NCBI GenBank assembly: GCA_963777955.1
Contig: CAVZSQ010000022.1
Coordinates: forward strand, 64,001 to 128,000
Reading direction: 5' to 3'
DNA: 64,000 bases
From: Calditrichia bacterium
GTDB lineage: Bacteria > Calditrichota > Calditrichia > JAJRVZ01
Of the stretch, positions 21,848 to 64,000 are shown in pieces. The first letter of the stretch is position 1; every line of letters starts with the position of its first letter. Made by a program: the position numbers and the translations under genes. The notes below the pieces were generated by a model. That model did not search any database and was not told the origin of the DNA. It was given only the letters and a program-made list of their open reading frames with translations.

Positions 21848-21902
21848 AAGGCTTCCTCCCTATTGGTTACTATTTTGTTTAGCATATGTATTCTAAAAAG
21901 AA

Positions 21903-22000: not shown

Positions 22001-22027
22001 TTTTAATTACCAGTTACAAATTACCAA

Positions 22028-26286: not shown

Positions 26287-26335
26287 GATATTTCTACCAT
26301 ATTTTTAATTTCCAAATTCTAATTACTAATTAAAT

Positions 26336-26440
26336 CAAATTCCAGGCACCAATGACCAAAATACAAATTACTAATCTCAAATTTATTCTCCGTGGAACTC
26401 CGTGGTTCTTCGCCGAAGGTCTCCGTGGATCTTCGTGTAA
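26336..26440 (+). repeat. Right half of the CACGGAG element family
   Basis: TTCCAGGCAC...CTCCGTGGAACTCCGTGG...CGCCGAAGGTCTCCGTGG...CGTGTAA. Confidence 0.6.
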
Positions 26441-26454
26441 TTTTTTACCTGATA

Positions 26455-26492
26455 AGATTTCTCGTCCGCCTGCCGGCGGACTCGAAATGACA
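26455..26492. repeat. AGATTTCTC...GAAATGACA palindromic repeat, single unit
   Basis: Same ends as the units at 50725-50822 and 53444-53558; internal GC hairpin GTCCGCC-GGCGGAC. Confidence 0.65.
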
Positions 26493-26528
26493 GTCATTAT
26501 TTCAATTACCAATTACTAATTACCAATT

Positions 26529-28742: not shown

Positions 28743-28760
28743 ATTTTCTTCACCGTTATT

Positions 28761-42811: not shown

Positions 42812-42836
42812 CCGAAAATAAAACAGCGAGATATAA

Positions 42837-44300: not shown

Positions 44301-44315
44301 AACCGGGCCGGGATT

Positions 44316-45765
44316 ATGAGAAGCCGAGCGATCCGTTTGCTGGTGATTGAAGACGAACAGTACGATGTCCGCCGGATCAGGAATACCTTAAAACCATTTG
44401 AACAGCGTATCCACATCCATGATGTGGTGGCCACCGGGCACTGCCGCCCTTGATTTAATCCGGGAAAATGAAAAATTCTACGATGTCATTATTATGGATT
44501 TTCATATTGCCGGCAGTCTTAATGGTGAAAACCTGATCCGCCAGATCAAAGCCATCGAGCCGCTGGTCCAGATAATCGTCGTGACCAAGATGACCATCAA
44601 TATTACTGATTTTGAATTTGCTAACCGTCTGATCGAAGCGGGAGCCATGTGGTACTGCACAAAATATCCCGTCGATATCGAAGAATATATTTACCAGCCC
44701 ACGGATTTCATCCTGAGTATCCTCAATGCCTATGAGAAACGCTGCCTGGAGCAGGCCCGGATCAGAACCGAGCAACGCCTGCAATATACCATTGATGAAC
44801 AGATCGAAGCCATACCGATCATCGGCAGCTCTCCCGGTATTGCCAAACTGCGTGAACAGATCAACCAGTGTGCCCGCACCGATACGACGGTTTTGATCCT
44901 GGGAGCATCGGGAACCGGCAAAGAACTGGTGGCCAAACACATCCATTTCCAGAGCAACCGTCGAAACGAGAAATTTGTACCGATCAACTGCGGCAGTATC
45001 CCCGAGCATTTGATCGAAAGTGAATTGTTCGGATTCGAGAAGGGGTCTTTCACCGGCGCCGATAAGAGCAAGCCGGGATTGTTTGAACTGGCCGATCACG
45101 GTACGATTTTCCTGGATGAAATCGGCGAGTTGCCGCAACCAGCACAGGTAAAATTACTGCGGGTGCTGCAGGAAGGGGAAATACAGAAAATCGGGCGGAC
45201 CAACCGTATTCAGGTCAATACACGCGTAATCGCCGCAACGAACAGTGATTTATGGAAGAGCGTGGAGCAGAAAAATTTCCGCGAGGATCTGTTCTACCGC
45301 CTGAATGTCCTGACCATAACTGTTCCCCCGGTCCGTGAACACCGCGAAGATGTGCCGGCACTTATCCGGCATTTCTTTATGGACTATGCCGAACGCAATA
45401 TGCTCAAAGTGCCGGAAATTACGGCAGAGGCCATGAAGCAATTGGAAACATTCTCCTGGCCGGGCAATGTACGGCAAATGCAAAATGTGGTGCAGCGCTT
45501 ATTGCTGACCACGAATACAGTGATCAATAAATCGGATGTGGAGAAAGTCATGAGCGGACCCAGCGGCGGAAACCCGCCCGCTGAACCGGTCTATAATTGG
45601 GACCCGGATCATATCCAGAATTGGCGCACGATGGAAAGGGAATTAAGAAAAAACTATTTTGAATTCGTCCGCAGCCACTCTAATTCAGATGCCGATACAG
45701 CACGAAAATTAGGTCTGGCTCCGCCTAATTACTACCGGATGTGTAAAGAAATTGGAATTAAATAA
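44316..45765 (+). CDS. Sigma54-dependent response regulator (REC-AAA-HTH), frameshift near 44440
   Basis: LLVIEDE from ATG 44316, IIMDF, GASGTGKE, ESELFG..KGSFTGA, FLDEIGE, FREDLFYRL, WPGNVR. Confidence 0.92.
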
Positions 45766-45880: not shown

Positions 45881-45950
45881 ACATCTTTAATATTCTAACC
45901 ATTCTTGCAGACAAAAGCAGGCAGCATTTTAATATGGAAAGGAAAATATT

Positions 45951-46817
45951 CTGAAGAAATTATTCTTTCCGGTAATTTCTGTAATCCTGATTTTCCATTG
46001 CTTACTAAATAGTAGTTGCGATAAAAATAGTACGAAACCACCAGACCAAAAACCGGATTCGATATATGTTCCGCCAGGCTGGACGCTGGTCTGGCACGAT
46101 GAGTTCAATGCTGCTGAGATCGATCTTTCCAAATGGGAGCACGAAGTCAACGCCTGGGGGGGCGGGAATAATGAACTGCAGTATTATACTGCCCGGCCGG
46201 AAAATTCCTACACAACCGACAGTGTACTGATCATCAAAGCGATAAAGGAGACCTATACAGGTCCTGAAGGCACGCGCCAGTATACCTCGGCACGCCTGCG
46301 CACACTCAACCAGGGGGACTGGAAATACGGCCGTTTTGACATCCGGGCGCAATTGCCTTATGGCCAGGGGCTCTGGCCGGCAATCTGGATGCTGCCGTCG
46401 GACTGGATCTACGGCGGCTGGGCGGCCAGCGGGGAGATCGATATCATGGAACTACTCGGCCATGAACCGCCGAAGGTATATGGCACACTGCATTATGGCG
46501 GAGAGTATCCAGATAATGTACGCAGCGGATCATCTTACACCCTGTCCGGCGGTACATTTTCGGAAGATTTTCACCTGTTTACGCTGGAATGGGACACCAC
46601 CGAAATCAACTGGTATGTGGATGGTGAGCATTATCTGACCCTGAACAGCTGGTACAGCGCCAATTATGGTTTTCCGGCGCCTTTCGATCAAAGGTTTCAT
46701 CTCTTATTAAATGTAGCTGTAGGCGGGAACTGGCCGGGCAACCCGGACGCCTCGACAGTTTTCCCGCAGGAGATGAAGATCGATTATGTAAGGGTCTTTG
46801 AAAGGGATGATAATTAA
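45951..46817 (+). CDS. GH16 laminarinase-type glycoside hydrolase, lipoprotein; start codon non-canonical or erroneous
   Basis: Open frame from CTG 45951: LKKLFF...NSSC, LVWHDEF, GNNELQYY, YTSARL, WPAIWMLP, GEIDIME, LLNVAVGGNWPG, IDYVRV. Confidence 0.9.
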   Translation: MKKLFFPVISVILIFHCLLNSSCDKNSTKPPDQKPDSIYVPPGWTLVWHDEFNAAEIDLSKWEHEVNAWGGGNNELQYYTARPENSYTTDSVLIIKAIKETYTGPEGTRQYTSARLRTLNQGDWKYGRFDIRAQLPYGQGLWPAIWMLPSDWIYGGWAASGEIDIMELLGHEPPKVYGTLHYGGEYPDNVRSGSSYTLSGGTFSEDFHLFTLEWDTTEINWYVDGEHYLTLNSWYSANYGFPAPFDQRFHLLLNVAVGGNWPGNPDASTVFPQEMKIDYVRVFERDDN

Positions 46818-48837
46818 ATGACCAATAAATTAAATTCCAAATCTCAAAATCCAATCAGGCTGTTTATTACGGCGATGATTCTACTGATAGCTTCGCAGAA
46901 CAGTTTTTCTGCATTTTTCAAAACGCAGGGTGACACAATTCTGGACACGAACGGGCAGCCCATATTATTACGCGGGGTTGGTCTGGGCGGCTGGCTGGTT
47001 CCCGAAGGGTATATGCTGCGTACTCCCGGCTTCGGCTCACCCAGCTCAATCCGGGCTCAGTTTGAAGGTTTGATCGGAGCAGAAAATACGGATCTGTTTT
47101 TTGACCTGTACCGGGCCAATTATGTAAATGAAAACGATATCGCGGCCATTGCCGCTCTGGGCTATAATTCCATCCGGCTGCCGTTTCATTATAACCTGTT
47201 TTATGACCCGGACAGTTCCAAATTTGAAGAGGCAGGTTTTGCTTTGGTCGATACATTCCTGGAATGGTGCCGCCAGTATAACCTGTTCGTGATCCTGGAT
47301 ATGCACTGCGCCCCGGGGGGACAGAATGCCGGGAATATATCCGACAGCGACGGTGAAGAGGCGCGCCTGTGGACCAACAGTGCCAACCAGGATCTGACCG
47401 TGCTGATCTGGACAGAAATTGCCGGCCGTTACGTTAATGAAGAATTGATCATCGGTTATGATTTGCTGAATGAACCTGTCCTGCCATCCGGCTATAGTAA
47501 CAACATTCTGAAATCTTTTTATATCAGGATGATTGCTGAAATAAGACAGGTAGATGCAAATCATATACTCTTCATCGAAGGGAACAACTGGGCCACAGAT
47601 TTTAATTTATTAACTCCGCCCCTGGGCTCTAATACGGTCTATGCTTTCCACAAGTACTGGAGCGAGACCACGGTGTCAACCATCCAGAATATGCTCGATA
47701 TCAGGACGCTCTATAATGTTCCGCTATGGATGGGAGAATCGGGAGAGAATTCGAATCCGTGGTTTTATGAAACCATTCACCTGCTGGAACAGAATGATAT
47801 CGGCTGGAACTGGTGGACGCATAAAAAGATCGCCACTACCACCAGCCCGTACTCGGCACTGATTACTGAAAACTACCAGACCGTACTCGATTATCTGGAT
47901 GGCAATACGACCAAACCCTCGGAGGAATTTGCCAAAAACGCCCTGTTTGAGATGGCGGAAAATCTGGCCATTGATAAATGCGAGTACCATCCTGATGTAG
48001 TAGCCGCACTCTTTGACGGGCAATATAATTCGGTCAGCAAACCGTACCAGGATTTAAAAATCCCGGGAACCATCGATGCGGTAAATTATGATATCGGGAA
48101 CAACGGTCTGGCTTACTTCGATTCGGATTACAAACGGATCCGCTGGGATGTCTGGCAGCCCTGGAATTCAGGCGGAGCATACCGCAATGACGGAGTGGAC
48201 ATTGAGGCAGCGCAGGACGCCCAGGGGGCGGCATATAATATCGGCTGGATTAAAAACGGGGAATGGATCAGGTATACGATCAATTCAGAAATTAACGGTA
48301 TTTACCGCTTAGCTCTGCGTATTGCTTCGTCCGCTAATACCGGCCGGCTGAATGTCGAGATAGACGACCAGGCCCAGGTCAGTAATCTTTCCGTACCCAA
48401 TACCGGGGGCTGGCAGAATTGGCAATGGCTGGATGCCGGGGATGTAGAATTAACGGCAGGATCGCATGAACTGCGCTTATACTTTGTCCAGGAAGGATTT
48501 AATATCAACCAGATAAAATTTTCGTTACTGAGCAGTTCCGGATTTGAAAAGATCAATAGTACATTTTTTTGCGGGAAGAATTACCCGAATCCCTTTAACG
48601 GAGTCAATACGATTCCTATTGTTTTGCCAAATCCTACCAGGGTCAGGATTTCAGTGTATGACAACCAGGGCAAATTGATTAAAACCGTAATCGATGGCAA
48701 TCTGTCCGAAGGTTTATCGGAGATCAGGCTGGGATGGCCGCAACAGTTCAGGCGATTCAGTGGCTTCGGGCCAGTATTTTTATCTGCTGGATATAAATAA
48801 TAAAAAGATTACACGGAAGATGATTTTGTTGAGGTAG
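46818..48837 (+). CDS. GH5 glycoside hydrolase with CBM6 and type A-like CTD, frameshift near 48730
   Basis: LGGWLVPEGYM, IRLPFHY, LDMHCAPGGQ, DLLNEP, FHKYW, WMGESGEN, YRNDGVDI, NTGGWQNW, NYPNPFN. Confidence 0.9.
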
Positions 48838-48916: not shown

Positions 48917-50707
48917 ATGCGTATATTAAAAATACTGATATTAATATTGCTCTCGGCGAATCTCCTCCCGGCCAAAACCTATAAAGGGGCTGAATTGCGT
49001 ACGGTGAGCACATACCTGTACGGAAAATTCGAAGTGCGAATGAAGTCGGCAGCCGGCAGCGGATTGCTTTCCTCATTCTTTACTTATTATGACGGGACGG
49101 GTCTGCCGGCCAACTGGAACGAAATTGATATCGAGATCATGGGCCGCTACACGGATCAGGAACAGTTTAATGTGATTTCGCCGGGACAGGTTAACCATGT
49201 GTATAGTCATAACTCTCCTTTCAATCCCCAGCAGGCTTTTCATGTTTATTCTTTTGAATGGACCCCTGATTATATCGCCTGGTCGGTCGATGGCTATGAA
49301 GTATACCGGCAGACAGGTGATCATATCGCCGGTATTTCCCGGGCTCAGAAAATTATGATGAACATCTGGCCACCGGATAATGTGGGTTGGGCCGGTAGTT
49401 TCAATCCGGCTATTTTACCGGTCTATGCTTATTATGATTGGATTAAATACTATTCTTATACTCCGGGTGTTAACGACAATTTTACTTTGCAGTGGACTGA
49501 TGATTTTACCAGCTGGGATCAGGGCAGGTGGGCCAAGGCGACGCATACCTTTGACGGGAATAATTGTGATTTTATCCCGGCTAACGCGGTCTTTACCAAT
49601 GGCTATATGATTTTGTGTCTGACCGATGCTGTCAACACCGGTTATAACGGAGACCCGGTTGGCGATGAAGACATTGATCCCCCTTATATGGCCTGGGCCA
49701 GATCTTATCGTACCTGTGTAGATGCGGCCTTTTCAGAAGAGATCGATCCGCTTTCTGCCCAGACTTTATCGAATTATACCATTCCGGGTGCAGAAATCAA
49801 CAACGTTGTTTTACTGACCGATCAGCGCCGGGTCAGATTGCAGGTTGACAGTCTGGATAATGAGTTGAGTTACAACCTGATTGTCAATGGGATCAAGGAT
49901 CTGGCTGAGCCGGCCCATACCATGAGTCTTACGCTGCGGCAGATTACCAGTCCTCCGGCGGTTCCGCTTAAAATTAATTGCGGCGGTGCGGCCTTATCCG
50001 GTTTTATCGCCGATCAGGTCTGGGATTATTCAAAAGAATATGGCCGGGTGGGCGGTTATACGGTCACACAGCAGTCCGGAACGCAGTTCCAGGGAACCTT
50101 GCAGCCGGAAATATATGAAACGGAATTAAGAGACATCACCTTCTATAATATTCGCCTGGCCGAAGGAATTTACAATATTACCCTGCTGCTGGCCGAAACC
50201 GAATACAGCGCCGCCAATCAAAGAGTTTTTGATGTCTACTGTGAAGGACAATTATATTTTAATAACCTGGATATATATAATGAAGCGGGCAGCTTTACAG
50301 CATTGGAAAAGGTGATCGAAAACCTGACTGTTTCTGACGGATTGTTAGAGTTATACCTGGATACCAGCCAGGGCGAAACCGTATTGAGCGGCATCAAAAT
50401 CGACCTGATCGCTACGGGAATACAAAGTCCCGCGGCAGCGTCTGAGTCGTTTAAGTGGAAGATCTATCCTAATCCATTTAATGCCGCGGTAACTGTTGAA
50501 TATCAATTACCCGGATCCTCGACGGTTCAGTTAAAAGTGTATAACATGCTGGGTCAATTGGTGTTATCACTCGATCAGGGCTATCAATCATCAGGCAATC
50601 ATTCAATCAGGATCGATGGCAGTAGCTTAAGTTCCGGGATTTATTTTATTGAAGTGCTTGTGGATCGTGAAATTTCCGGCAGGATAAAGTTAACTAATTT
50701 AAAGTAG
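48917..50707 (+). CDS. GH16 lichenase-type beta-glucanase with Ig-like and malectin-like domains and CTD
   Basis: YKGAELRT, YGKFEVRMK, WNEIDIE, FHVYSFEWTPDYI, MMNIW; INCGG...LAET...RVFDV (malectin); YPNPFN. Confidence 0.88.
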   Translation: MRILKILILILLSANLLPAKTYKGAELRTVSTYLYGKFEVRMKSAAGSGLLSSFFTYYDGTGLPANWNEIDIEIMGRYTDQEQFNVISPGQVNHVYSHNSPFNPQQAFHVYSFEWTPDYIAWSVDGYEVYRQTGDHIAGISRAQKIMMNIWPPDNVGWAGSFNPAILPVYAYYDWIKYYSYTPGVNDNFTLQWTDDFTSWDQGRWAKATHTFDGNNCDFIPANAVFTNGYMILCLTDAVNTGYNGDPVGDEDIDPPYMAWARSYRTCVDAAFSEEIDPLSAQTLSNYTIPGAEINNVVLLTDQRRVRLQVDSLDNELSYNLIVNGIKDLAEPAHTMSLTLRQITSPPAVPLKINCGGAALSGFIADQVWDYSKEYGRVGGYTVTQQSGTQFQGTLQPEIYETELRDITFYNIRLAEGIYNITLLLAETEYSAANQRVFDVYCEGQLYFNNLDIYNEAGSFTALEKVIENLTVSDGLLELYLDTSQGETVLSGIKIDLIATGIQSPAAASESFKWKIYPNPFNAAVTVEYQLPGSSTVQLKVYNMLGQLVLSLDQGYQSSGNHSIRIDGSSLSSGIYFIEVLVDREISGRIKLTNLK

Positions 50708-50822: not shown

Positions 50823-50933
50823 AAGTTGTCCATTTCAAAAGAATAATACTTAAAAAAGGAGGGCATACTGCAGCAAAATAAACTTAACAGAATTGAACAC
50901 ACAATGTTTCATAAACTAATAACGGAGGTTGTT

Positions 50934-53405
50934 ATGCGTAAGTTTTTACCCTTTTATTTTCTGTTGTTTTTATTGATGGCCTACACTGCTCAGGGACAGT
51001 TAGGGCAGGTGATCATCGATTCTTTCGAATCTGCCGAACCGGAAAGTCTGTACCTGATAAATAGCGAAGGCGCTCCCAGCAGATTGGAGCTGACCCAGAA
51101 TACTGCTGATTTTGTCGACGGTTCAGCCTCTCTGGATCTTAATGCGGTGGTCGGGTCATTTCATACCTGGGGCAGTTTTGTCGAATTCAGTTATACGGCC
51201 CCCAGCGGGACAGGGCCCTGGGACTGGAGCCTCAGCGATTCGTTGAGCCTCTGGTTGAAAGTACGGGTTGCACCCACAATCCCGGCGACTTTTCTTTTAC
51301 GGGTCAACTTGTACGATCAGTTGACCACCGGCGGGAACATGGACAGGTACATTTATGAGAACATAGGCGTTCTCGATCAGGTTTCAGGTTGGATTAACCT
51401 GAGAATGCCCCTGGTTCAAAAGACCAGCGATGGATCGGTCAATCCGGACAGCACCGGCTTTGTGATCATCCCGAGCAACTGGAATCCTCCGCCCTCGAAC
51501 AACAGGATACTGGATTTTGACAAGATAGTTCGTTATCAATTTGACTTAGTCGTTTCGGGATCGGGGACCGGAAATCTGCCGGCTGACTCGATGCAGGTTA
51601 CCTTTGATAAATTCAACCGCTTTGGATTCAAAAAGACCCCGTTTATTTACTTCAACGGCAAGGTTTTAGCTTCAAGGTTGACTTCCTGGACCTGGGGAGG
51701 TTCAGCTATGGGGGTCGAAGAAAATGCCGGTTCGGAAGAAGGTACCAATGCCATGAAATGGGTGCAGGGCGCCGGCTGGACAGGATTTGGTTTTGATATC
51801 AGTCCTGCTGATAATATGACCGCAGTCTGGGCCAGTGATTCGGTTAAATTCAGGATGAAAGCCCAGTCAGGCACTGGAGCCCTGCGTATCCAGTTTGAAG
51901 ACGGCACTGCCAAGAAAGGCACGGTATTCACGCCTACGGCCGACGGCAACTGGTACACCTATGCTTTTAAACTGAGTGAAATGGTATATCAGGACGGAAC
52001 CTCAAACTTTGATTCTACGAGTATAACGAAACTTGGTCTGATGGCCGAGAACAGCGGCGTTAACGGGAATGAAGTATATATCGACTTTCTATGGACCGGC
52101 AATCCGGTCATTGATGTAGCCCCGCCGCCCAAGGTGCTGAATTTTGTGGTTGTGCCCGACGCGGTTAATTTCTATAACCTGATGTCCTGGTCGGATCTGC
52201 CCAATGAATTGAATGAGTCTTACCTGATTTTTGTCAGTGACAAAGCGATTACCAACGTTGACGATCCCAAGGTCGAACGCCTGCTCACAGTCAGGGAAGG
52301 GGAGAATAGCGCCATACATTACCCCAGGTATCCGCTGGTGGATCAGTCGGTCAATCTTTATTATGCTATACAGGCCCAGGATGAAGCCGGCAATGTGGGG
52401 CTGATTTCGGCCAAGGGTCCGATTACCAATACTGCCAAAGGAATCGCTACTTTTTCACAAACCCCGCCTGCCAATCTGGTCATCGACGGTGATGTACCGG
52501 AATGGGAGTTGAGCGGAATCGTTCCGTATGTACTGAAGAGATCAAATGTCGCGACCACTTTCGTCAGCCGGGGCGTGGTGACCGATGATGCCGATATAAC
52601 CGCCACGATCTACCTGGCCATGGATGATGCGAATTTGTACATCGGTGCACTTCTATTCGATGATGATTATGAGTTTACAACCGGTAACTGGTGGGAACAG
52701 GATGCCCTGGAAATTTTTATAGGACTGTATAATTCTGTTGGTACCAAACACACGGCGTTCAGACGCGGCAGTGAACCCGATTATAAACTTATCCTGAAAA
52801 CCGATGAATTGGCCCGTGAACCTTCCTGGAAAACCCTGGCTCTGCCCGGGTCGGCGTTTTATCAATTCCAGGACTGGGGCGGCGGAGAGTATAGTTACGA
52901 AGCTGTAATACCTTTCGATTCGGTCAGACAGGAGGGAGACGATCTGTTCGTCCCGGAACGCGGGATGCGCATTCCTCTGGAAATAACCGTACATGACCGG
53001 GATAACAGTGCTTCTGAAGGAAACCTGGTGATGAGTCCTTATAATAAGGATAATGCTTATCTGACACCCTCGGTCTGGTCGCACACCTGGGTTGGCGATA
53101 CCGTAAGTACGGGAGTTATCGGCGATAATAATTCTGTCCTGAACTCGTACGAACTCAGGCAAAATTATCCTAATCCTTTTAATCCACTTACGACTATTGA
53201 ATATTCCATCGGCCGGGCATCGCTGGTGACCCTGGATGTTTATAATATACTGGGACAGCGTGTCAGAAACCTGGTCAACCAGAAACAAGCGAGCGGACGC
53301 TATCAGATCAGTTTTGATGGTAAAGATCTGGCTTCGGGAGTTTATTTCTACCAGATCAAAGCTGGTGATTTCTCCACCATTAAAAAGATGTTGCTGATAA
53401 AGTAA
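50934..53405 (+). CDS. Secreted multi-CBM protein (galactose-binding-like modules, Fn3-like, CBM9-like sugar-binding domain, type A-like CTD); no catalytic domain recognised
   Basis: GGAGG RBS, signal peptide, AQDEAGN, VIDGD..EW, YLAMDDANLYIG, WEQDALEIF, YEAVIPF, QNYPNPFNP...KKMLLIK. Confidence 0.75.
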   Translation: MRKFLPFYFLLFLLMAYTAQGQLGQVIIDSFESAEPESLYLINSEGAPSRLELTQNTADFVDGSASLDLNAVVGSFHTWGSFVEFSYTAPSGTGPWDWSLSDSLSLWLKVRVAPTIPATFLLRVNLYDQLTTGGNMDRYIYENIGVLDQVSGWINLRMPLVQKTSDGSVNPDSTGFVIIPSNWNPPPSNNRILDFDKIVRYQFDLVVSGSGTGNLPADSMQVTFDKFNRFGFKKTPFIYFNGKVLASRLTSWTWGGSAMGVEENAGSEEGTNAMKWVQGAGWTGFGFDISPADNMTAVWASDSVKFRMKAQSGTGALRIQFEDGTAKKGTVFTPTADGNWYTYAFKLSEMVYQDGTSNFDSTSITKLGLMAENSGVNGNEVYIDFLWTGNPVIDVAPPPKVLNFVVVPDAVNFYNLMSWSDLPNELNESYLIFVSDKAITNVDDPKVERLLTVREGENSAIHYPRYPLVDQSVNLYYAIQAQDEAGNVGLISAKGPITNTAKGIATFSQTPPANLVIDGDVPEWELSGIVPYVLKRSNVATTFVSRGVVTDDADITATIYLAMDDANLYIGALLFDDDYEFTTGNWWEQDALEIFIGLYNSVGTKHTAFRRGSEPDYKLILKTDELAREPSWKTLALPGSAFYQFQDWGGGEYSYEAVIPFDSVRQEGDDLFVPERGMRIPLEITVHDRDNSASEGNLVMSPYNKDNAYLTPSVWSHTWVGDTVSTGVIGDNNSVLNSYELRQNYPNPFNPLTTIEYSIGRASLVTLDVYNILGQRVRNLVNQKQASGRYQISFDGKDLASGVYFYQIKAGDFSTIKKMLLIK

Positions 53406-53714: not shown

Positions 53715-56414
53715 ATGAAAAAACATCAACTGTCTTTGTTGAGTGTATGTCTGATTGTCCTGTTTTTTCAGACTGCCATGGCACAGACGACCGGGAAAAT
53801 AGCCGGTACGGTTTATGATCAGAACAGCAGAGAGCCGGCGATCGGGGCCAATGTTTTCCTGGAGAACACGGCCCTGGGTACCACCGTCAGTATAGACGGC
53901 AGTTTTTTCATTATTAATGTTCCGCCGGGGACGTACACTATGATCGTGCAAATGATCGGTTATGAAACCGTCCGGATCGAAGACCTGCGTGTTTCGGTAA
54001 ACCGGACAGCGTCAGTGGAAACATTTTTAAAACCGGCAGTGGTCGAAGGTTCGGTAATCGTCGTGCGGGCGGAAAAAATTGCCACCAAAAAGGATCAGAC
54101 CAGCTCTATGCGTACGGTCTCTTCCGAACAGATGGAAATCCTGCCCGTCGAAAGTGTCGGACAGGTGGTGGCCATGCAGGCCGGGGTGGTCAACGGACAT
54201 TTCCGCGGCGGCCGCTACAATGAAGTTTCATACCTGGTTGACGGCATGCCGGTGGATGATAGTTTTAACCGCAGCGGAAAGATGGTCGAGCTGGAAACTA
54301 ATGCCGTTCAGGATCTGGAAGTTATCACCGGAACTTTTAATGCCGAGTACGGCCGGGCCATGAGCGGTATAGTAAATGCGGTGACCCGCGAAGGCGGGAA
54401 TAAAATTTCGGCCAGTGTTACGGCAGGCTTTGCCAATTACTTCACCTCCCATAAGGACATTTTTCTCGGTTTAAAAGATTCGCAGTTTGACCGGAATAAG
54501 GATTACAGCATCGATCTGAGCGGTCCAATCATCAGAGAAAAGTTGACCTTTTTCTCCAATATCCGTTATCAGGATAATAAAAATCATCTGAATGGAATTC
54601 AACGTTTCAATGTTGGCGACTTTAGTGATTTTTCGGAAGATAATCCGAATTTATGGATATCAGAACACAGCGGTGATAGTAAATATGTGCCGATGAATAA
54701 TTCCCTGAATCTTTCTTTTATGGGTAAACTGGCTTATAAAATGACAAATAATATAAAACTTTCGCTGTTATACACGCTCAATGATGACGAATGGCACGGT
54801 TACGATCATGCTTTCAAATATAATCCGGACGGCCGGGCGGCAGCCTATCGTAAAACGGATATGTTGTCTCTGCAACTCAATCATATGTTAAGCACCCGTG
54901 CTTTTTATGAATTCAAACTGTCTTATGTTGAAAATTATAATGGCTGGTATCTGTACGAAGATCCCCTGAATGCTGGTTACATACATGATGGGTATTTAAG
55001 AAGTAATGACCTGACGGGTTTTTATACCGGCGGCCAGCAGAAAGGGCACGCCGAGCGGACTATGACGGATATAAACGCCAAATTTGATTTAACCTGGCAG
55101 ATCAATAAGAGTCATAGTATAAAAACCGGCTGGCAATACATTAACCATGTAGTGGATAACCGCTGGGAAGATATCCGCAATCTTTATTATGGAACGGATG
55201 CTGAAGATGATCTGAGTTTATATGTCCCCATCGTTTATGCTGATTCGTCAGAATATTCAGATATTTACAAAGTGAAACCATATGAATTTGCCGCTTATCT
55301 GCAGGATAAAATGGAATATCAGGACCTGGTAATGAATCTGGGACTGCGTCTCGATTATTTCAATCCCAATACGGCCTATCCATCCGACCGCAGAAATCCG
55401 GCTAATCGGCTGTTGTATGCCGACAGTCTGAACCGTATGTCAACCTATCCGAAAGCGGACCCGCAGATTCAATTGAGCCCGCGTTTCGGCCTGGCCTACC
55501 AGTTAGGCCAAAAGGCCGTGCTGCATTTCAGTTACGGACACTTCTTTCAGATGCCGCCCATGGAAAACCTGTATCAGAATCATTCTTTTGATTTAGGTTC
55601 GGCCGATTATGCCACCACCATGGGAAATTCTCAGTTAAAGGCCCAGAAAACAGTTCAATATGAAATCGGTCTGTGGCAGGAAATAATCAAAGACATGGGC
55701 CTGGAAGTTTCCCTTTATTACCGCGATATCTACGACCTGTTGAGCACGAAATTCATCGCCACCTATAACCAGGTTGTTTACGGTCTGTATACCAATTTAG
55801 ATTACGGGAATGTGAAAGGACTGGAATTAAAATATGATTTCAGGGTGGGACCGGTCCCGATAAATATCAATTATACTCTGCAATATACACGCGGTAATTC
55901 AGATACCCCCCTGCAGAATTTTAACCGTGCCGGTAATAACGCCGATCCGGTTAGTGTACTGATCCCGATGAGCTGGGATCAGCGCCATACACTGAATGCC
56001 ACCGTGGGTTATTATCAGCGGAATTACGGTGCAACACTGACCGGTTATTATAATTCAGGTGCACCGTACACCTGGAGTTCCATTACCGAGAATATCCAGA
56101 CCTATATCAATTTACTACCCAATAATGACTATCGGCCCAGCCGTATTTCGCTGGATCTCAACGCCTATTATGATTTTGATATTTATAAAAATTTCAGGGG
56201 GCGCCTGAGCCTGCTGGTTTATAATATACTGGATCGCCTGAATGAAGAATCGGTGAATGGTCAAACTGGGCGGGCTTATACGGCAATTGTACAGGAAGTA
56301 AATCTGGCCGGCCACCGCAGCGACTTCAACACCTATTACGACCGGATTCAAAATCCAGCGATGTATTCATCACCCAGGATGATCAAACTCCTGATGAGTG
56401 TGTCTTTTAATTAA
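53715..56414 (+). CDS. TonB-dependent receptor, same subfamily as 28761-31690
   Basis: TTGKIAGTV, GHFRGGR, EVITGTFNAEYGRAMSGIVN, YLQDKMEY...NLGLRLD, SPRFG, WDQRHT, C-terminal aromatic residue. Confidence 0.92.
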   Translation: MKKHQLSLLSVCLIVLFFQTAMAQTTGKIAGTVYDQNSREPAIGANVFLENTALGTTVSIDGSFFIINVPPGTYTMIVQMIGYETVRIEDLRVSVNRTASVETFLKPAVVEGSVIVVRAEKIATKKDQTSSMRTVSSEQMEILPVESVGQVVAMQAGVVNGHFRGGRYNEVSYLVDGMPVDDSFNRSGKMVELETNAVQDLEVITGTFNAEYGRAMSGIVNAVTREGGNKISASVTAGFANYFTSHKDIFLGLKDSQFDRNKDYSIDLSGPIIREKLTFFSNIRYQDNKNHLNGIQRFNVGDFSDFSEDNPNLWISEHSGDSKYVPMNNSLNLSFMGKLAYKMTNNIKLSLLYTLNDDEWHGYDHAFKYNPDGRAAAYRKTDMLSLQLNHMLSTRAFYEFKLSYVENYNGWYLYEDPLNAGYIHDGYLRSNDLTGFYTGGQQKGHAERTMTDINAKFDLTWQINKSHSIKTGWQYINHVVDNRWEDIRNLYYGTDAEDDLSLYVPIVYADSSEYSDIYKVKPYEFAAYLQDKMEYQDLVMNLGLRLDYFNPNTAYPSDRRNPANRLLYADSLNRMSTYPKADPQIQLSPRFGLAYQLGQKAVLHFSYGHFFQMPPMENLYQNHSFDLGSADYATTMGNSQLKAQKTVQYEIGLWQEIIKDMGLEVSLYYRDIYDLLSTKFIATYNQVVYGLYTNLDYGNVKGLELKYDFRVGPVPININYTLQYTRGNSDTPLQNFNRAGNNADPVSVLIPMSWDQRHTLNATVGYYQRNYGATLTGYYNSGAPYTWSSITENIQTYINLLPNNDYRPSRISLDLNAYYDFDIYKNFRGRLSLLVYNILDRLNEESVNGQTGRAYTAIVQEVNLAGHRSDFNTYYDRIQNPAMYSSPRMIKLLMSVSFN

Positions 56415-56469
56415 ACGAACAGGGTATGCCGAAGAGTAGATATAAAAATATCAAAGGAGTTTTTAAAAT

Positions 56470-59400
56470 ATGAATCATAAACTGTGGATCTTTGTGTGGC
56501 TGCTGGCCTTACTGTTTGTTCTGCCCGCTCAGGTATGGGCCCAGGGCAGTCCCTATACCGGACCTGATGATCCTGCCGGCGACGATGCCGCCATCCGGGA
56601 AGGATACATGGACGGCAACCGCATTTATCTTTATTATCAGAATACCACTGAACTGGCCTATTGGATCAGCGGAGTAACCGATCCACTGTGGTCCCGCTGG
56701 CCTAATAATTTTGAAGGGGAGCGCATGATAGAAGGGGTAGGTCTGTTAATTGGGGCCAAGGTCTACGTGGTGGAAAATGATACCATACCGGTAACCAATC
56801 CGGTTGATATTCAAAATGGATATGTTATGATAGATGGGCAGCCCAGAACATATTGTACCCTTATATTATCTGCAAACCAGTTACCGGGAAGAAATGGATA
56901 CGGCACCCGGTGGTTTTCCAAACTGGAGTTTATACCCGGTCTTTGGTTATCTCAATGAAACCAGTGAATGCCCGGCCATCAGTGATGATGAAAATTCCTG
57001 GCCGGCAGTCGGCTGGCCATCGACCGGCGATGAATTGAAATGGCCCGGTGAATGGAACGGGCGCTTCGGACGCGGTATATTTAAAGCCGATCTGGAAACC
57101 TATTTTGTGGCCAACGATGCCCAGGATCAGGAGTATCTTGGCGCTGAAGACCTGACCAAATATTATCCCCGCCCGGGTATAAAAATCGGATATAAAAGAG
57201 CATCTACCATTCAGAATGGCCTGCCCTGGGGGGGTGTCGGTATACGGGTTTCTCAACGGGGTTTTCAATGGAATAATCCGCAGGCCCGCGATGCTATTTT
57301 CTGGGAATATTCCATTGCCAATATATCCGATTATGACCTGACCGAAGTTGCCTTTGGTTACTGGGTCGATAACGGAATCGGCGGAGATCTGGCTGATGAT
57401 GAACTCGGCTATTTTGACCGTGATATCGATATGGCCTATTCCTGGGATTATAACGGTATCGGTCGCGGCGGAATTAAAACCGGTACGATGGGTTTTGCTT
57501 ACCTGGAGAGTCCGGGACTGGGTTTCGATGGTGAGGACAATGATAATGACGGACTACTGGATGAAAGAAGAAATAATGACGCCGGAGTTTTAATCGGACC
57601 GACAGATGGGATAAACGATATTAATCGTTTTCTGGAAGTATACAAATTGAAATTGGAAGAGCTGCAGGACCACTTTCAGGGGGATGAAGATCAGGACTGG
57701 CAACATGGGACAGACGTGAATGGCAACGGTACTTATGCTATTAATATAGGCCAGGATTCGCCGCTGTGGGTTTTAGAGGCAGGTGAGAATGCCGGAGATG
57801 ATGTCGGTTTGGACGGTGTTGGTCCGACCGATTTGAATTATAACGGACCGGATGAAGGGGAAGGAAATGGCAAACCGGATTTCAGAGTCGGTACCGGCTG
57901 CGAACCCAATTTTAATCTGACCGATGTAACCGAATCAGACATGGTAGGCTTGACTTCATTCCGGCTTTTTCCTGTACCCAGTCATTCTTCCAGTGACCGC
58001 TGGTTCCGTGGTGACCAGTCGATGTGGGAACTGATTGGTACGGATACCACCCTGGAATATCTGGGCAATATTTCCAATTTGATAGAAACATTTGCTTCAG
58101 GCCCGTTTCCGTTATACCAGGGTGAAGAGGAACATATATCCATGTCGGAATTACATTCCTTCGATCCGCTGGAAGGATTACAGAACGACTATTCTGCTCC
58201 GGCCTTGTTCAGGTTGAAGGAGATTGTGCAGATTATCTATGAAAACGATTATCAGTTTGCCCGGCCGCCGGAAATGCCTACTTTATCAGCAACTGCCGGA
58301 GACGGGCAAGTTATCCTGACCTGGGACAACCGGGCCGATAAACTTACCCGGGAACCTTTATTGAATAATAAAAATGATTTTGAAGGTTATAAACTCTTCC
58401 GGGCTTCTGATAAATTCATGTCCGATGCCACACAGATTACCGATGGTTACGGTGACGCCAAATATTTAAAACCTCTGTTTCAATGCGATCTGAAAGACGG
58501 CATATCTTTCTTCACCGATTTCGGTATGATCGATGGGGTCGGTTATAACCTGGGTAATGAAACAGGCATCGTGCATCATTTTGTCGACAACAATGTCCAG
58601 AATGGCCGGACCTATTATTATGGTCTGATTGCCTATGATTATGGGATGCCGGATATGGGACCGGGTGTATCCCCTTCCGAGAATAATATTGTGATCCGGC
58701 TCGATGAAAAAGATAATATAATCAAACTCGGGAAAAATGTTGCCGTGGTAACACCGCATCAGGTTGCCGCAGGATATGTTCCTCCCGAAATCGAACAGGG
58801 AACCACGCAAAATGTTCTGGGAACCGGGAAGTTGGCTGCCGAGATCATGGCTAAAACAGATTTAAAAACCGATCACACCTATAAAGTAAAATTTTCCATC
58901 GACACGATATCGGCGGTCACCGGTGTCGAAAATGCGGTACTGTATACGAACAACGGATTAACGGTGTATGATGTAACCTCGGGATCGGATGTTGCGGTAT
59001 ACCATGAAGATTCCCTGAGTTTTTCTTATAATAACCTGAAGAAAAAAACTGAATATTTTTCAGCACCAGGGGATTCGCTTTCTTTCTGGACTCTGAAAAC
59101 TGAATCAGCATTAGCGACGGATGTATTTGATGGATTGCGTGTTACGCTGGATTCCCTGCTGGAACGTCCGGAGTATGATTTCAGTAAATCAGGCTGGAAA
59201 AAATGGCAGACTGCTCCGGCTGCGATCCGCGTTATTCCTTCGCTGCCCGATATCAGTTATTACCCCTGGGATTTTGACCTGATTTTCAGTGCTGATACGG
59301 CTGCCTACCGCGGTAAAGTATATTTTAAGAATTTATACGATGAGTCCTATCAGCCGGTAAGCCGCCGGGATATGTTATTCAGGCAGGCATTTAATTTCTA

Positions 59401-60013
59401 TATCATCAACTCCGTATTCGGTGATACTCTGGATCTGGTGGTTCATGATCAGAATGATAACGATACTCTCGATATTTTTGAGGATCGTATTCTGGCCGGA
59501 ACGCTGACTCCTGAAAGAAACTGGGGTGGAACTGTTTTTGCCATTGATTTCAAGTCGGTTCCGGACAGCAGCCAGTTGCCGCAACCCGGAGATGTATACT
59601 CCATGAGTTTTAAGCGGCCTTACTGGATTACCGATTCGATTTTATTTACGGTCAAACCGGAAGGTATTTTAAATACCGCAGAATTAAAAACCAGTATGGA
59701 TGAGATTAAAGTTGTACCTAATCCGTATGTGGCCACGAACACGATGGAAGAAGCACTGCGCAGTTCAGTGATGAACCAGCAGCGGAAAATAATGTTCACC
59801 CACATCCCGGCCAGATGCACGATCAAGATCTTCACCACCAGCGGTCAGCTGGTAAATACCCTTGAAGTGAATAACCCTGCAGAGAATGGCATAATGCACT
59901 GGGATCTGCTGACCAAAGAGGGGCTGGAAATTGCCGCCGGTATCTACATTTTTTATGTCAAATCAACCCAGACCGGGGAAGAAAAATTCGGCAAATTTGC
60001 AGTGGTTAAATAA
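56470..60013 (+). CDS. Large secreted TBDR-associated protein with Asp-rich loops and non-type-A CTD, frameshift near 56855
   Basis: Signal peptide; GIRVSQRGFQW...AIFWEYSIAN; DNDNDGLLDE; DFEGYKLFR; NGRTYYY...AYD; IKVVPNPY...IMFTHIPARCTIKIFTTSG...WDLLTKEGLEIAAGIY...GKFAVVK. Confidence 0.88.
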
Positions 60014-60062
60014 GTGGATTTTAAATATATGTTAAAATATCCTTTCAGGAAGGGTACTAAAT

Positions 60063-61121
60063 ATGAATTATAAAAAATTAATCATTTTCTTAATCATGGC
60101 TGTGACACTTCAAACTGCGTTGTATGGCCAAAAACCTCACCGCGTGGGTACAACTGCAGCCAACTTTTTGGAATACGGTTTCGGCGCTGCCGGTGCGGCC
60201 ATGGGTGATGCCTGCGTAGCCACAACCAACGATATCACGGCGATGTACTGGAATCCGGCCGGGATGGCTTTTATGGAGCAGAGCGAGGCCCAGATGGTCT
60301 ATCAGCCCTGGATCGTCGATATCAATACCTCATTCGCCGCGGCGGGCCTGGTAATTCCGTCTATCGGTACCATCGGCCTGGGCTTCATCAGCGTGGATTA
60401 CGGGGAAATGGATGTCACCACTGTTACCATGCAGGAAGGCACCGGCGAAACATTCTCGTCAAACGATTATGCGATCTCCCTGTCCTATGCCCGGCTATTG
60501 ACCGAGGGATTCGGGTTCGGAATTTCCGGCAAGTATATCGGATCCAAGATCTGGCACATGCAGGCAAACGCCCTGGCTGTGGATATGGGCGTGGTGGTCA
60601 GGACCTATTTCTTTTCCCGGAACAACGAACTGGAAAACGGTTTGCGCCTGGCCATGAGTATTTCCAATTACGGAACACGAATGAAGTACGATGGAATTGA
60701 TCTGGTGCAATCAATCGATATCGCGCCTGGTGAGGATGGTAATTTTGAATTTGTCGAGGGACAATACCGGCTGTCCGAATGGGAATTACCCCTGATCTTC
60801 AGAATCGGCGCATCCATGGTTCCCTACCATACCGAAAACCAAAGGTTAGTTGTGGCCGTTGATGCCCTGCATCCTAACAACAATGCCGAATCTGTCAATT
60901 TAGGTATGCAGTACGAATTGGATGTACCATCGACCGGTAAGTTTTTTCTGCGGGGCGGATACAAGGCGCTTTTTCTGCCGGATTCGGAATATGGACTCAG
61001 CCTGGGCGCAGGTATGGTCAAATACCTGATGAATAATCTGGCGTTGAAAATTGATTATGCCTATCGCGACCTGGGTCTGCTGGGTAAGGTGCACAGTTAT
61101 AGTGTCGGGTTTTTGTTCTGA
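60063..61121 (+). CDS. PorV/PorQ family outer-membrane barrel
   Basis: RVGTTAANFL...GAAGAAMG, AMYWNPAG, LSYARLLT, LPLIFRIG, HPNN, LRGGY, IDYAY, C-terminal F. Confidence 0.88.
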   Translation: MNYKKLIIFLIMAVTLQTALYGQKPHRVGTTAANFLEYGFGAAGAAMGDACVATTNDITAMYWNPAGMAFMEQSEAQMVYQPWIVDINTSFAAAGLVIPSIGTIGLGFISVDYGEMDVTTVTMQEGTGETFSSNDYAISLSYARLLTEGFGFGISGKYIGSKIWHMQANALAVDMGVVVRTYFFSRNNELENGLRLAMSISNYGTRMKYDGIDLVQSIDIAPGEDGNFEFVEGQYRLSEWELPLIFRIGASMVPYHTENQRLVVAVDALHPNNNAESVNLGMQYELDVPSTGKFFLRGGYKALFLPDSEYGLSLGAGMVKYLMNNLALKIDYAYRDLGLLGKVHSYSVGFLF

Positions 61122-61147: not shown

Positions 61148-61222
61148 GGGTAAAAAGGTTAACAGGTTAAAAGGTTAAAAGGTTAACAGGTTAAAAGGTT
61201 AAAAGGAAAATAGGTAAATAGG
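61148..61222 (+). repeat. Octamer tandem repeat (AA[A/C]AGGTT)n
   Basis: AAAAGGTT AACAGGTT AAAAGGTT AAAAGGTT AACAGGTT AAAAGGTT plus degenerate flanking units. Confidence 0.85.
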
Positions 61223-61233
61223 AGATAGTTTCT

Positions 61234-62733
61234 ATCAGGCGATATATAGAATTATCTATCCTGGCGGTTCTGATAATTTTTTATTCCGGTTGTAAAAAGG
61301 AACATGCTGCTGAGGATAAGAATGAAGTTATTTTAGCACGGGTTGGGGATAAAACCATATCGGTGGATGAGTTTGTACGCCGGGCCGAATATACCATTCG
61401 CCCGGATTACTGCCAGGGCCAGAATTATATTCATAAAAAGATTGTGCTGAATTCACTGATTGCCGAGAAAATGCTGGCTATGGAAGCAGGATCCGATAAC
61501 GAACTAAGCCGCAATGAGGAATTTCAGAATTATTTACGCGGCCGGAAAGAACAGGCCATGCGGCAATGGTATTATTATCAGGAAGCGTACAATGAGGTGA
61601 CTCCCGATACCGCAGAAATTAAAAAGGAATTCGCTGTGGCCGGAAGAACCTATAAGATTTCCTATTTCACCCTGCCACTTAACAACTCTCAGGAAAAAAT
61701 GCGTGAACGGTTAAAACATGATGCCACGGCCTTTGAAACGGTATTCAAAGAAATCGCCGGAGCAGAGAACACCCTGCCGCAAAAAGAGATCGGCTATGAT
61801 AAACCTGAAGATGAACAGATCTATGCACAATTGTTTTTTAATCCTGTACGGCAGGGACAGCTAATCGGTCCGCTGGAAACGGCTGATGGTACACAACTGG
61901 TTCTGCGTGTGGACGGCTGGAGCGATGATCTGGCACTGTCCGGTCAGCAAATTCAGGAGCGCTGGCGTACGGTTAAAGAAAATGTCACCAATCGTAGGCC
62001 TGGACATCTATGAGCGCAAAGTGCTGGATATTATGAAGGGCAAAAAAATAGAATTCAACCGGGATGTTTTTTTTAAGCTGGCCGAAATTGTGGCAGCGGA
62101 TTATTACAAAACTGAAGAGGAGAAGAAACAGAGTTTCAATAAAAAATTCTGGAACGAAGACCGCGACGAGATGGTACTCGATGACCGGTCCAGTCAACTG
62201 GAATCGATCCGGGATCAGCAACTTTTTACTGTCGATGGACAGGCCTGGACCGTGGGGGCCTTTGAGCGGGAATTACAATCTCATCCACTGGTCTTCCGTC
62301 AAAGGCGCTTTCCGCGAAACCGGTTTGCCGAACAATTTAAACTGGCTATTGTGGACATGGTCAGGGATAAATACATCACGGCAGCGGCTTATCAAAAGGG
62401 TTACGATAAGGTTGGAGCGGTCGAGCGGAATTCCCGGATGTGGCAGGATAACCTGTTAGCCCTGTATCAAAAGCATACCTACGTGAATTCTCTGAAGACG
62501 CAGGCTAAAGACCAGCTGCAAATTATTACCGAAGAACTGAATCCTTATGTCCAGGGACTCTTTTTAAAAAATATAGCGATGATATAAAAATTGATGTAAA
62601 GAAATTTGAAGAAATCCAACTAACCGGTGTGGACATGTTTGTGATCCAGCGTAATGTGCCATTTCCGGTGGTAGTTCCGGGTTTCCCGCAGTTGACTACG
62701 CATGACCGGCTGGATTACGGACAAAAAATGTGA
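61234..62733 (+). CDS. SurA/PrsA-like chaperone lipoprotein, two frameshifts; start codon non-canonical or erroneous
   Basis: ...LIIFYSGC lipobox, ILARVGDKTISVDEF, LNSLIAEKMLA.EA; second half DKYITAAAYQKG. Confidence 0.6.
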
Positions 62734-62865: not shown

Positions 62866-62900
62866 GTGAGAAAACATGAAATATTTCATTGGAGCATATC

Positions 62901-64000
62901 ATGAACAAAATTCATTTCTTTTTATTTGCAATTTTAATTCTGTCATTCATTTCAGGCTGCAGTAATAAGCCCATGATGCAAAATTACTCGAAAGCCACGA
63001 TCCTGCAGACCTCCCGGGCGGGGGATAATTTAAAGAACACAGGGACATTTGAGTTAAGTGCAGCAGGACAAAGCGATAATATCCTGGTCGAGATTTTACC
63101 CGATCAAAAATATCAGCAGCTGGTCGGTTTCGGAGGAGCGTTTACCGAATCATCAGCCCAGGTATTAAAGCAATTAGATCAGGTCAAACGGGATGAAGTG
63201 ATCAGGGCATACTTCAGCCCGGCCGGGGCGGCCTATTCCCTGACCCGCACCCATATCAACAGTTGTGATTTTTCCCTGAATAATTATGCCTATGACAATA
63301 CACCCGGGGATGTCGAGCTGAAGGATTTCAGCATCAAGGAGGATATGGATGATCTGATCCCTCTGATTAAAGACGCCCTGGCGGTTGAAAAGGCTGATTT
63401 TAAAATAATCGCTTCACCCTGGACCGCTCCGCCCTGGATGAAAGATAATAATAATTGGAATAACGGATCATTGAAACCAGAATACTATCCGGCCTGGGCT
63501 CTGTACTTTTCCAGGTACATTAAAGCCTATGAAAAAGAGGGCATTCCGATCTGGGCGGTCACTGTTGAGAATGAACCGGAGGGTAATGGCGGAAATTGGG
63601 AAAGTATGATCTACACCCCCCGGCAAATGGCCGACTTTATAAAAGATCATCTGGGTCCGCAATTTGTCAAAGACAGTATCAAATCTGAAATCCTGATTTT
63701 TGATCACAACAGAGACCATGTCAAGGAATGGGCCGAGCAGATACTCAGTGATGCTGCTGTGGCCAAGTATGTATGGGGCACAGCGGTGCACTGGTACAGC
63801 AGTACGAATAACTGGTACCCCGAAACGCTGAACGAAGTGCACCAGAAATTTCCGGATAAACATTTACTGCATACTGAATCCTGTATAGATACCGAAGTGC
63901 CGGTCTGGCAGGATGACGCCTGGTACTGGAAAAAAGAAGCCACTGATTGGGGCTATGACTGGGCACCGGAAGCAGATAAACCCCTTCATCCCAAATATGT
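62901..64000 (+). CDS. GH30 glycoside hydrolase lipoprotein (beta-1,6-glucanase/glucosylceramidase family), 3'-truncated by the window
   Basis: Own translation from ATG 62901 (GGAG RBS): ...FISGC, YQQLVGFGGAFTES, RTHINSCDFS, ASPWTAPPWMK, VENEP, FDHNR, VHWY, LHTESC. Confidence 0.92.
   Translation, partial: MNKIHFFLFAILILSFISGCSNKPMMQNYSKATILQTSRAGDNLKNTGTFELSAAGQSDNILVEILPDQKYQQLVGFGGAFTESSAQVLKQLDQVKRDEVIRAYFSPAGAAYSLTRTHINSCDFSLNNYAYDNTPGDVELKDFSIKEDMDDLIPLIKDALAVEKADFKIIASPWTAPPWMKDNNNWNNGSLKPEYYPAWALYFSRYIKAYEKEGIPIWAVTVENEPEGNGGNWESMIYTPRQMADFIKDHLGPQFVKDSIKSEILIFDHNRDHVKEWAEQILSDAAVAKYVWGTAVHWYSSTNNWYPETLNEVHQKFPDKHLLHTESCIDTEVPVWQDDAWYWKKEATDWGYDWAPEADKPLHPKY

Follow-up and report, generated by a model that had tools for sequence, protein, structure and literature searches.

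A TonB-dependent receptor, a large secreted partner and a PorV-family barrel form a conserved and apparently undescribed module in Calditrichota and related phyla

In SusC/SusD (RagA/RagB) systems a TonB-dependent receptor (TBDR) is followed by a co-inherited surface partner, the pairs lie in loci for carbohydrate-active enzymes (CAZymes) or peptidases, and many paralogues occur per genome. Prediction of polysaccharide utilization loci (PULs) usually relies on susC-susD pairs. Here we describe a three-gene unit found in a 64,000-nucleotide stretch of DNA from a Calditrichia bacterium (contig CAVZSQ010000022.1, positions 64,001 to 128,000; the whole stretch is termed the window), in which a TBDR gene is followed by the gene for a large secreted protein (the partner) and then by that of a PorV-family barrel. 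This triad shares with SusC/SusD the features named above, but its TBDR is not of the SusC type, its partner is a Cys-free, mainly beta protein with a type IX secretion system (T9SS)-type tail rather than a helical lipoprotein, and a third gene, encoding the barrel, is nearly always present. The triad is a real and widespread TonB module made from T9SS parts, it contains a new protein family and it is apparently undescribed; it would work like SusC/SusD or TbpA-TbpB-Slam yet belongs to neither.

Other systems share individual traits with the triad. The T9SS attachment complex likewise joins a PorV/PorQ-family barrel to a protein whose tail has the PorZ/PorU fold, as PorQ-PorZ and PorV-PorU; PorU and PorZ keep their tails and remain on PorV and PorQ, and the cognate barrels are proposed to shield the tails from cleavage (PMC10202324; PMC11285876). 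These pairs are single-copy secretion parts, whereas the triads of the window's genome amount to 13 dedicated pairs tied to TBDRs. With SprF/PorP and its cargo SprB, which carries a type B C-terminal domain (CTD), the triad has in common a cargo gene clustered with a cognate barrel, and differs in having a PorV/PorQ-family barrel, a tail without a type B match and a TBDR as part of the unit. The type XI secretion systems TbpA-TbpB-Slam and HrpABC also combine a TBDR, a co-receptor and a barrel that places the co-receptor outside, but they consist of unrelated proteins, occur in Proteobacteria and serve metal or heme uptake; moreover, Slam translocates its cargo while the triad barrel is predicted to tether it, and in the Pfam scan the triad 1 barrel was PorV rather than DUF560/Slam and its partner had no TbpB-type family. 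Finally, in the Bacteroidota BAM complex a FadL-family barrel, BamG, docks the surface protein BamH beside a larger barrel, but the larger barrel there is BamA, and BamH is a lipoprotein attached through its N-terminus.

The same gene order is found in the alginate locus of Rhodothermus marinus, where tonB-hypA-hypB comprise a TBDR, a 2,181-nt gene with a T9SS CTD and a PorV/PorQ gene (PMC9530828). The likeness is one of order and size (hypA is sized like the short type of partner), and in the portion of that paper available hypA and hypB are hypothetical genes without a proposed role (PMC9530828). A full-text literature search, covering mostly open papers without their supplements, returned no description of the triad unit or of its proposed role; the available portion of the Caldithrix abyssi genome paper mentions neither PorV nor SusD (PMC5317091), and a term search of the available portion of PMC12296878 found nothing.

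Two triads in the window and the architecture of the partner

The window contains two triads, composed of the following genes:

53715..56414, plus strand: TBDR of triad 1 (TBDR1), 899 aa, non-SusC, triad-associated group, with CarboxypepD_reg domain, plug and barrel
56470..60013, plus strand: partner of triad 1, about 1180 aa, interrupted near 56850 by a single additional base; signal peptide, head, fibronectin type III (FN3)-like domain, spacer and CTD
60063..61121, plus strand: PorV/PorQ-family barrel of triad 1 (NF033709), a triad-specific paralogue
28761..31690, minus strand: TBDR of triad 2 (TBDR2), frameshifted near 29540-29590
26529..28742, minus strand: partner of triad 2, short type, 737 aa; head, FN3-like domain and CTD, without spacer
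25252..26286, minus strand: PorV/PorQ-family barrel of triad 2 (NF033709, 220 bits)

In triad 1 the TBDR and partner genes are separated by 55 bp and the partner and barrel genes by 49 bp. A Pfam scan of TBDR1 returned PF00593 (E 3.5e-27), a plug match and CarboxypepD_reg at the N-terminus. The SusC profile TIGR04056 did not match TBDR1 at E<=0.01, TBDR2 reached 56.8 bits against a cut-off of 368 and over its N-terminus only, and the SusC motif AIYG.R..NGV was found in neither. An earlier sequence-only reading of this DNA had proposed a non-SusC TBDR followed not by a SusD lipoprotein but by a secreted protein and a PorV-family barrel. The arrangement proved correct, and a check of both loci with hidden Markov models (HMMs) for SusC and SusD gave no SusC score over cut-off and no SusD Pfam match. 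The same reading had the triad recur at 25252-31690 beside a polysaccharide lyase of family PL9: the order is indeed the same, but the PL9 gene lies 6.8 kb away, TBDR2 is frameshifted and the partner has only 737 aa.

Barrel 1 scored 214 bits with NF033709 (cut-off 90), and both barrels fell below the equivalog cut-offs of PorV (NF033710, cut-off 250: 98.5 bits for barrel 1 and 82 for barrel 2) and PorQ (NF033711, cut-off 220: 88.6 and 96 bits). The housekeeping PorV (C22:793.5k), M6-like and PorU-like genes of the window's genome sit away from the triads, so that the triad barrel is not the housekeeping PorV; each triad has its own PorV-family barrel, as had been suggested.

The partner of triad 1 appears in the assembly as two open reading frames (ORFs; 56470-56958 and 56834-60013) separated by the extra base. 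The secreted protein of about 1180 aa that had been predicted therefore agrees in size with an unsplit 1176-aa relative, P0001, but is not continuous here. P0001 is 92% identical to the partner in an alignment that crosses the frame change at 56837-56862, and one base is absent at 56850/56851 in related-strain contigs of three of four runs, the fourth having no contig there. Because split genes are numerous elsewhere in the same assembly, the split is likely an assembly error; a real pseudogene is ruled out by the intact relatives.

Neither P0001 nor the triad 2 partner matched any Pfam family, SusD included, and the window Pfam scan gave only a weak Ig-like match in the tail. The signal peptide is Cys-free (no Cys within the first 35 residues), and the AlphaFold2 model of P0001 (pLDDT 80, pTM 0.66) is mainly beta. 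In a fold search, residues 33-592 of P0001, the head, matched beta-supersandwich domains (CgsiGP1, Z 16.6; laminaribiose phosphorylase, Z 16.1; GH116, Z 15.2; GH, glycoside hydrolase), and the head from a distant subfamily has the same predicted fold (Z 16.8). The supersandwich domains matched in GH94, GH116 and GH15 enzymes (Z 15-17) are non-catalytic, and the catalytic barrel of these enzymes is absent from the partner. In the model, an acidic insertion in the head is probably calcium-binding. The fold searches of the partner returned no SusD-like row, which does not by itself exclude SusD; this identity was rejected on the lack of a SusD Pfam match, the Cys-free signal and a mainly beta model rather than helical tetratricopeptide repeats. 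Sequence searches of the PDB with the partner and the TBDR gave no matches.

Behind the head of P0001 come an FN3-like domain, whose range was inferred from sequence, a spacer domain at about residues 765-1060 and the tail. Residues 1065-1176 match the tails of PorZ (Z 11.7, rmsd 2.1, 85 aligned) and PorU (Z 9.9, rmsd 2.6, 87 aligned); in a Foldseek search with P0001, PorZ ranked first and many FN3 repeats were listed. By sequence, the tail gave a weak match to the end of NF052228 and 17.3 bits with the ordinary type A CTD model TIGR04183 (cut-off 23), while the type B model was unmatched. The earlier idea of a T9SS-type partner thus stands insofar as the tail resembles the retained PorZ/PorU type, but the partner is not ordinary type A cargo by that cut-off. 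A partner-tail HMM gave 76-131 bits for exactly the 13 partners of the window's genome, one of which was in its training set, and at most 47 bits for all else; 139 ORFs of this genome fit the ordinary CTD model better. The partner tail is a distinct class that occurs only in triad partners.

The domain plan is constant over 46 triads sampled from four single-contig genomes: head of 315-663 aa, FN3-like domain of 104-208, spacer of 1-10 or 236-377 and tail of 100-144, for partners of 590-1260 aa. No head column is invariant over these 46 triads; only P, G and G reach at least 90%, and the best-conserved acidic residue stands at 80%. Within the beta-glucan subfamily, to which triad 1 belongs, the head has a large number of invariant Asp, Glu, His and Trp residues, and 15 Trp are kept at 90% or more. 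A head profile found 12,175 clusters at E<=0.001 and 8,909 at E<=1e-10 (50% clustering); these include type A cargo carrying the head as an accessory module, so that the count overstates the triad partners. A protein atlas held only unnamed clusters for the partner, a homologue (P0023) is listed for C. abyssi, and some relatives also carry Reg_prop propeller repeats. Two proteins of the window's genome with an ordinary type A CTD contain the head domain (C22:345344-348049 and C17:194244-196340), one of them behind a subtilase. Partners in L107, L122, L129, L138, L139, L150 and L152 extend C-terminally beyond the usual tail, often near GWxTD-domain genes and subtilases.

Conservation and co-inheritance of the triad

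The beta-glucan subfamily was sampled as the best 80 of 226 GTDB loci for the triad 1 partner, drawn from records whose names include Calditrichota, KSB1, Marinisomatota and Ignavibacteria. Where the flanks could be scored, this synteny survey, one of the checks put forward with the sequence-only reading, placed a TBDR directly upstream of the partner in 77/77 loci, a barrel directly downstream in 62/64 and both in 60/62; in both exceptions the barrel is still downstream, after one or two inserted genes. The order is far above chance expectation. The four single-contig genomes gave 87 PorV-family matches; to sample breadth, 58 regions surrounding the stronger ones were taken, and these contained the 46 triads (14, 9, 16 and 7 per genome) together with four loci in which the partner lies further upstream. 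An order variant occurs in L108, L116, L125 and L144: the partner, at least two genes, then TBDR and barrel.

Trees of the components were compared over 46 triads, with three broken ones dropped and 499 permutations, the triads being related by descent and hence not independent. Tree distances correlated between TBDR and head (r 0.83), TBDR and tail (0.79), tail and barrel (0.76) and TBDR and barrel (0.75), each at the permutation floor of p 0.002, and 22 of the 29 supported splits of the TBDR tree reappear in the head tree. The three genes therefore show the congruence that had been looked for, and this agreement demonstrates a unit, not contact. By partial correlation the linkage of the tail to the barrel and that to the TBDR were not separable. 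Inter-protein mutual information over 64 paired rows peaked at z 9.9, against 9.2-10.6 in three shuffles, at an effective depth of about 26 that is too shallow to inform.

The receptors form a recognizable group. With an HMM of the subfamily TBDR, triad TBDRs reached 260-1512 bits. Another 29 TBDRs, taken from 37 regions in three of the four single-contig genomes, were scored: 28 gave 23-139 bits and one, an orphan, 354. Neither partner nor barrel was found in any of these 37 regions. Support for monophyly of the triad TBDRs at the midpoint root was low (0.49), so that the group is defined here by the gap in scores.

At one locus of another genome (G035:C8:137561-160508; L272, L273) one TBDR and one barrel precede five tandem partners, which are followed by a second TBDR, two partners and a barrel. 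The tandem partners fall into two groups, within which stalk and tail share 92-100% DNA identity whereas the head region shares 54-99%, mostly below 90%; similarity between the heads lies largely at 54-93%. A constant anchor with a variable head is the pattern expected of a ligand-recognising surface part; phage escape or an assembly artefact could give it too.

The window's genome (G000; 92% complete) has 13 triad TBDRs, 12 in the order TBDR-partner-barrel (one with a small inserted gene) and one in the order TBDR-barrel-partner. SusD was not found in it with two Pfam models at this completeness, and no SusC scored over cut-off. The genome encodes TonB and SprA (TIGR04189 over cut-off, in pieces), and gave 38 PorV-family matches, fragments included. 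Across 71 genomes of the phylum, PorV-family matches were present in 71/71, with at least 13-29 each. Thus, the three genes constitute a conserved, co-inherited outer-membrane module that is independent of SusC/SusD.

Genes surrounding the triads

The triad neighbourhoods in the window comprise the following further genes:

41513..45765, plus strand: solute-binding protein, histidine kinase (15/80 related loci) and sigma-54 response regulator (15/80)
45933..46817, plus strand: GH16 with EIDIME motif and lipoprotein-like signal; open frame, start codon uncertain
46818..48800, plus strand: GH5 with carbohydrate-binding module CBM6 and partial type A CTD
48917..50707, plus strand: GH16 (BglS-like, under cut-off) with malectin domain and type A CTD
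50904..53405, plus strand: CBM9-like secreted protein with ordinary type A CTD; its cluster is in 44/47 long loci
61222..62587, plus strand: PpiC/SurA-like lipoprotein, frameshifted in the window; common fourth gene of the beta-glucan subfamily (38/47 long loci)
62889..64000, plus strand: GH30, best match endo-1,6-beta-glucanase BT3312-like (under cut-off), extending beyond the window end
23761..25255, minus strand: second FadL/BamG-like barrel, two ORFs with weak matches, behind the triad 2 barrel
17111..18481, minus strand: PL9 (PelN-like) lyase, 6.8 kb downstream of triad 2

Triad 1 lies inside the GH16/GH5/GH16/GH30 cluster recognized earlier, to which family scans add CBM6, malectin and CBM9-like domains. 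The locus has the PUL trait of clustered CAZymes with a TBDR and a regulator, but no tandem susC-susD pair was found. Among the 47 related loci of at least 15 kb, GH16 is present in 32, GH5 in 28, GH3 in 18, any glycoside hydrolase in 45, the CBM9-like cluster in 44 and the PpiC-like gene in 38, where each neighbour-cluster label rests on one representative. Many large-partner triads are accompanied by a PpiC/SurA-like lipoprotein, which may be a folding helper dedicated to them; units of about 11 bases form a short tandem repeat (61150-61210) between this gene and barrel 1. Promoter and terminator scans were no better than chance.

Between triad 2 and the PL9 gene lie the second FadL-like barrel and two further genes, and heads of the triad 2 group occur beside PL9, PL6-like and GH28 genes. 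The interval 18596-23590 encodes a large secreted protein that is rich in repeats and broken by frameshifts into several pieces, together with a related 520-aa CTD protein; neither matched a Pfam family except the CTD. FadL/BamG-like genes seemingly follow the barrels in L120 and L137 too, and lie near L145. At 1-14400 of the window, long ORFs overlap on opposite strands, unlike the remainder, and this DNA is possibly misbinned (genome contamination 5%).

Neighbours elsewhere are more varied. The nearest same-strand neighbours of the 46 triads (115 of 131 scanned, the remaining 16 mostly labelled already) include GH, PL or CBM proteins at 14 triads, a sugar-type ABC binding protein only at 3, a polysaccharide deacetylase at 1, peptidases at 6 and nothing telling at 22. 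In the regions read around the triads of the window's genome, GH or PL genes occur at 6/13 and peptidases at 3/13. A second subfamily, represented by 79 metagenome loci related to G000:C13:38864-50851, one of these three peptidase triads, has a TBDR directly upstream in 72/75 and a barrel directly downstream in 55/57. Counting the latter locus, it includes a MurR-type regulator in 53/80, a YfcC-like protein in 34/80 and an M14/MpaA-like protein in 24/80, and an NCBIfam scan named no CAZyme among its seven commonest neighbour clusters; it probably serves murein-peptide scavenging. The second subfamily (L012, L189-L267) also has an epimerase-like enolase, and the locus in the window's genome adds PepT-like and cyanophycinase genes. 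Because triads lie also among peptidase and murein-peptide genes, a glycan-only module is ruled out and the triad is a general importer, other copies of which serve other glycans or peptides. The alternative PUL architecture proposed before is accordingly right in being independent of SusC/SusD, co-inherited and, in the beta-glucan subfamily, associated with glycoside hydrolases at 45 of 47 long loci, but too narrow.

Proposed mechanism and its alternatives

According to the model, the partner would leave through the SprA translocon, which by analogy with T9SS cargo is likely, and its PorZ/PorU-like tail would then stay bound to its own PorV-family barrel in place of the lipid anchor of SusD, a retention that the attachment complexes make likely. 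An arm made up of the FN3-like domain and spacer would reach over the TBDR, and the beta-supersandwich head, positioned at the mouth of the TBDR, would be a substrate-capturing co-receptor; that the partner binds a ligand and hands it over to the TBDR we hold to be slightly favoured. Taken as a whole, this chain of export through SprA, retention of the tail on the barrel and capture of substrate by the head is the reading we prefer, with modest confidence. The substrate of triad 1 would probably be beta-1,3/1,6-glucan fragments, possibly also mixed-linkage glucan, because the subfamily loci hold GH16, GH5 and GH3 and the window has a GH30 of the endo-1,6-glucanase type. A stronger version is tentative, and we would put it at a little under even: an exported supersandwich lid, tethered by its private barrel, may cap the TBDR in a stable three-protein complex, forming a second SusD-independent TonB architecture of the non-Bacteroidota phyla of the Fibrobacterota-Chlorobiota-Bacteroidota group, in which lids could be copied and made to diverge behind a single transporter, thereby retuning it.

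The partner might instead be a surface enzyme of a new family, whose head cleaves or modifies polymer beside the TBDR while the barrel holds the tail. In its favour, the fold searches also returned catalytic supersandwich proteins, namely GH174 endo-fucanase (Z 11.3) and aldose epimerases (Z about 10), and the heads of the beta-glucan subfamily keep many invariant Asp, Glu, His and Trp. Against it, no column is invariant over the 46 diverse heads, and the top-ranking matches are to accessory parts of (alpha/alpha)6 enzymes, the catalytic barrel of which the partner lacks. GH16, GH5 and GH30 are moreover available from the loci themselves, and one fold is used at glycan and peptide loci alike; we consider an enzyme unlikely. 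A structural cover or assembly factor for the TBDR that binds no nutrient, comparable to the BamG-anchored BamH/BamM canopy or to a phage shield, appears slightly less probable again. It has a precedent in the FadL-family barrel that anchors surface BamH over BamA (PMC12611786), and would agree with the PpiC/SurA-like gene after many triads and with variable heads on constant stalks, which fit phage escape too; a fold typical of carbohydrate enzymes with its 15 conserved Trp argues otherwise, as does the grouping of heads by TBDR type and neighbouring enzymes (the triad 2 group with PL9, PL6-like and GH28).

An improbable reading makes the barrel only a dedicated secretion shuttle, as SprF is for SprB; the partner would then be released, or loosely attached, and scavenge substrate for delivery to the TBDR in the manner of a hemophore. 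Genes of type B cargo are found clustered with those of their cognate PorP/SprF barrels (PMC10202324), a soluble hemophore goes together with a TBDR and a barrel in type XI loci (PMC8406197), and a single barrel for five partners in G035 would suit a shuttle; however, the tail of about 100-120 residues is structurally closest to the non-cleaved tails of PorZ and PorU (PMC11285876). That the TBDR itself exports the partner, in the manner of Myxococcus xanthus Oar, a TBDR that exports PopC (PMC8406197), and so compensates for a missing GldLM motor is very improbable: GldM and GldN went undetected, as this idea would have it, but about 140 ordinary CTD proteins occur without TBDRs of their own, alongside SprA and a PorU-like protein, and catabolic enzymes and inner-membrane importers surround the loci.

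Several observations weigh against the co-receptor model that we prefer. Binding and export of the partner are inferred, being predictions from sequence and structural models. Agreement of the tail tree is no poorer with the TBDR tree (r 0.79) than with the barrel tree (0.76), so that operon linkage alone may account for the congruence. Supersandwich folds can be catalytic, as in the GH174 fucanase (Z 11.3) and the mutarotases (Z about 10) among the matches, and ordinary type A cargo proteins, one of them encoded behind a subtilase, contain the head domain although nothing links them to a TBDR. The triad-type TBDR of L290 stands as an orphan, and a few partner-barrel pairs have no adjacent TBDR (L143, L149, L151). 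SusD is present in 28/71 genomes of the phylum (1-3 each), so that its replacement is not exclusive, and in R. marinus Rmar_1070-1072 (a TBDR, a CTD-bearing hypothetical and a hypothetical protein), likened to the triad by gene order, share a locus with a true SusC/SusD pair (PMC6987092). Finally, GldM was not found in the window's genome and GldN scored over cut-off in 0/21 genomes, in searches limited to these two components and lacking a positive control among the control genomes.

On these results the export machine would be unlike the T9SS studied elsewhere; a similar reduced set has been reported for Melioribacter and Ignavibacterium (PMC11705866). The window's genome and 20 relatives have SprA, PorV, a PorU-like gene and about 140 CTD proteins, yet GldM and GldN went undetected.

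The triad provides a three-gene marker and a large unannotated protein family, and it explains why the genomes of the phylum carry at least 13 PorV/PorQ-family matches. Loci of this type would escape susC-susD-based PUL prediction in Marinisomatota, Calditrichota and KSB1. The arrangement suggests a new use of the T9SS, in which transporter partners are displayed by retained tails, and cultured species open to tests are C. abyssi, through its P0023 homologue, and R. marinus, through its matching gene order. If the model is true, Calditrichota, KSB1 and Marinisomatota would rely chiefly on the triad to capture glycans and peptides, with up to 16 triads per genome, and it would serve as a marker for substrate prediction.

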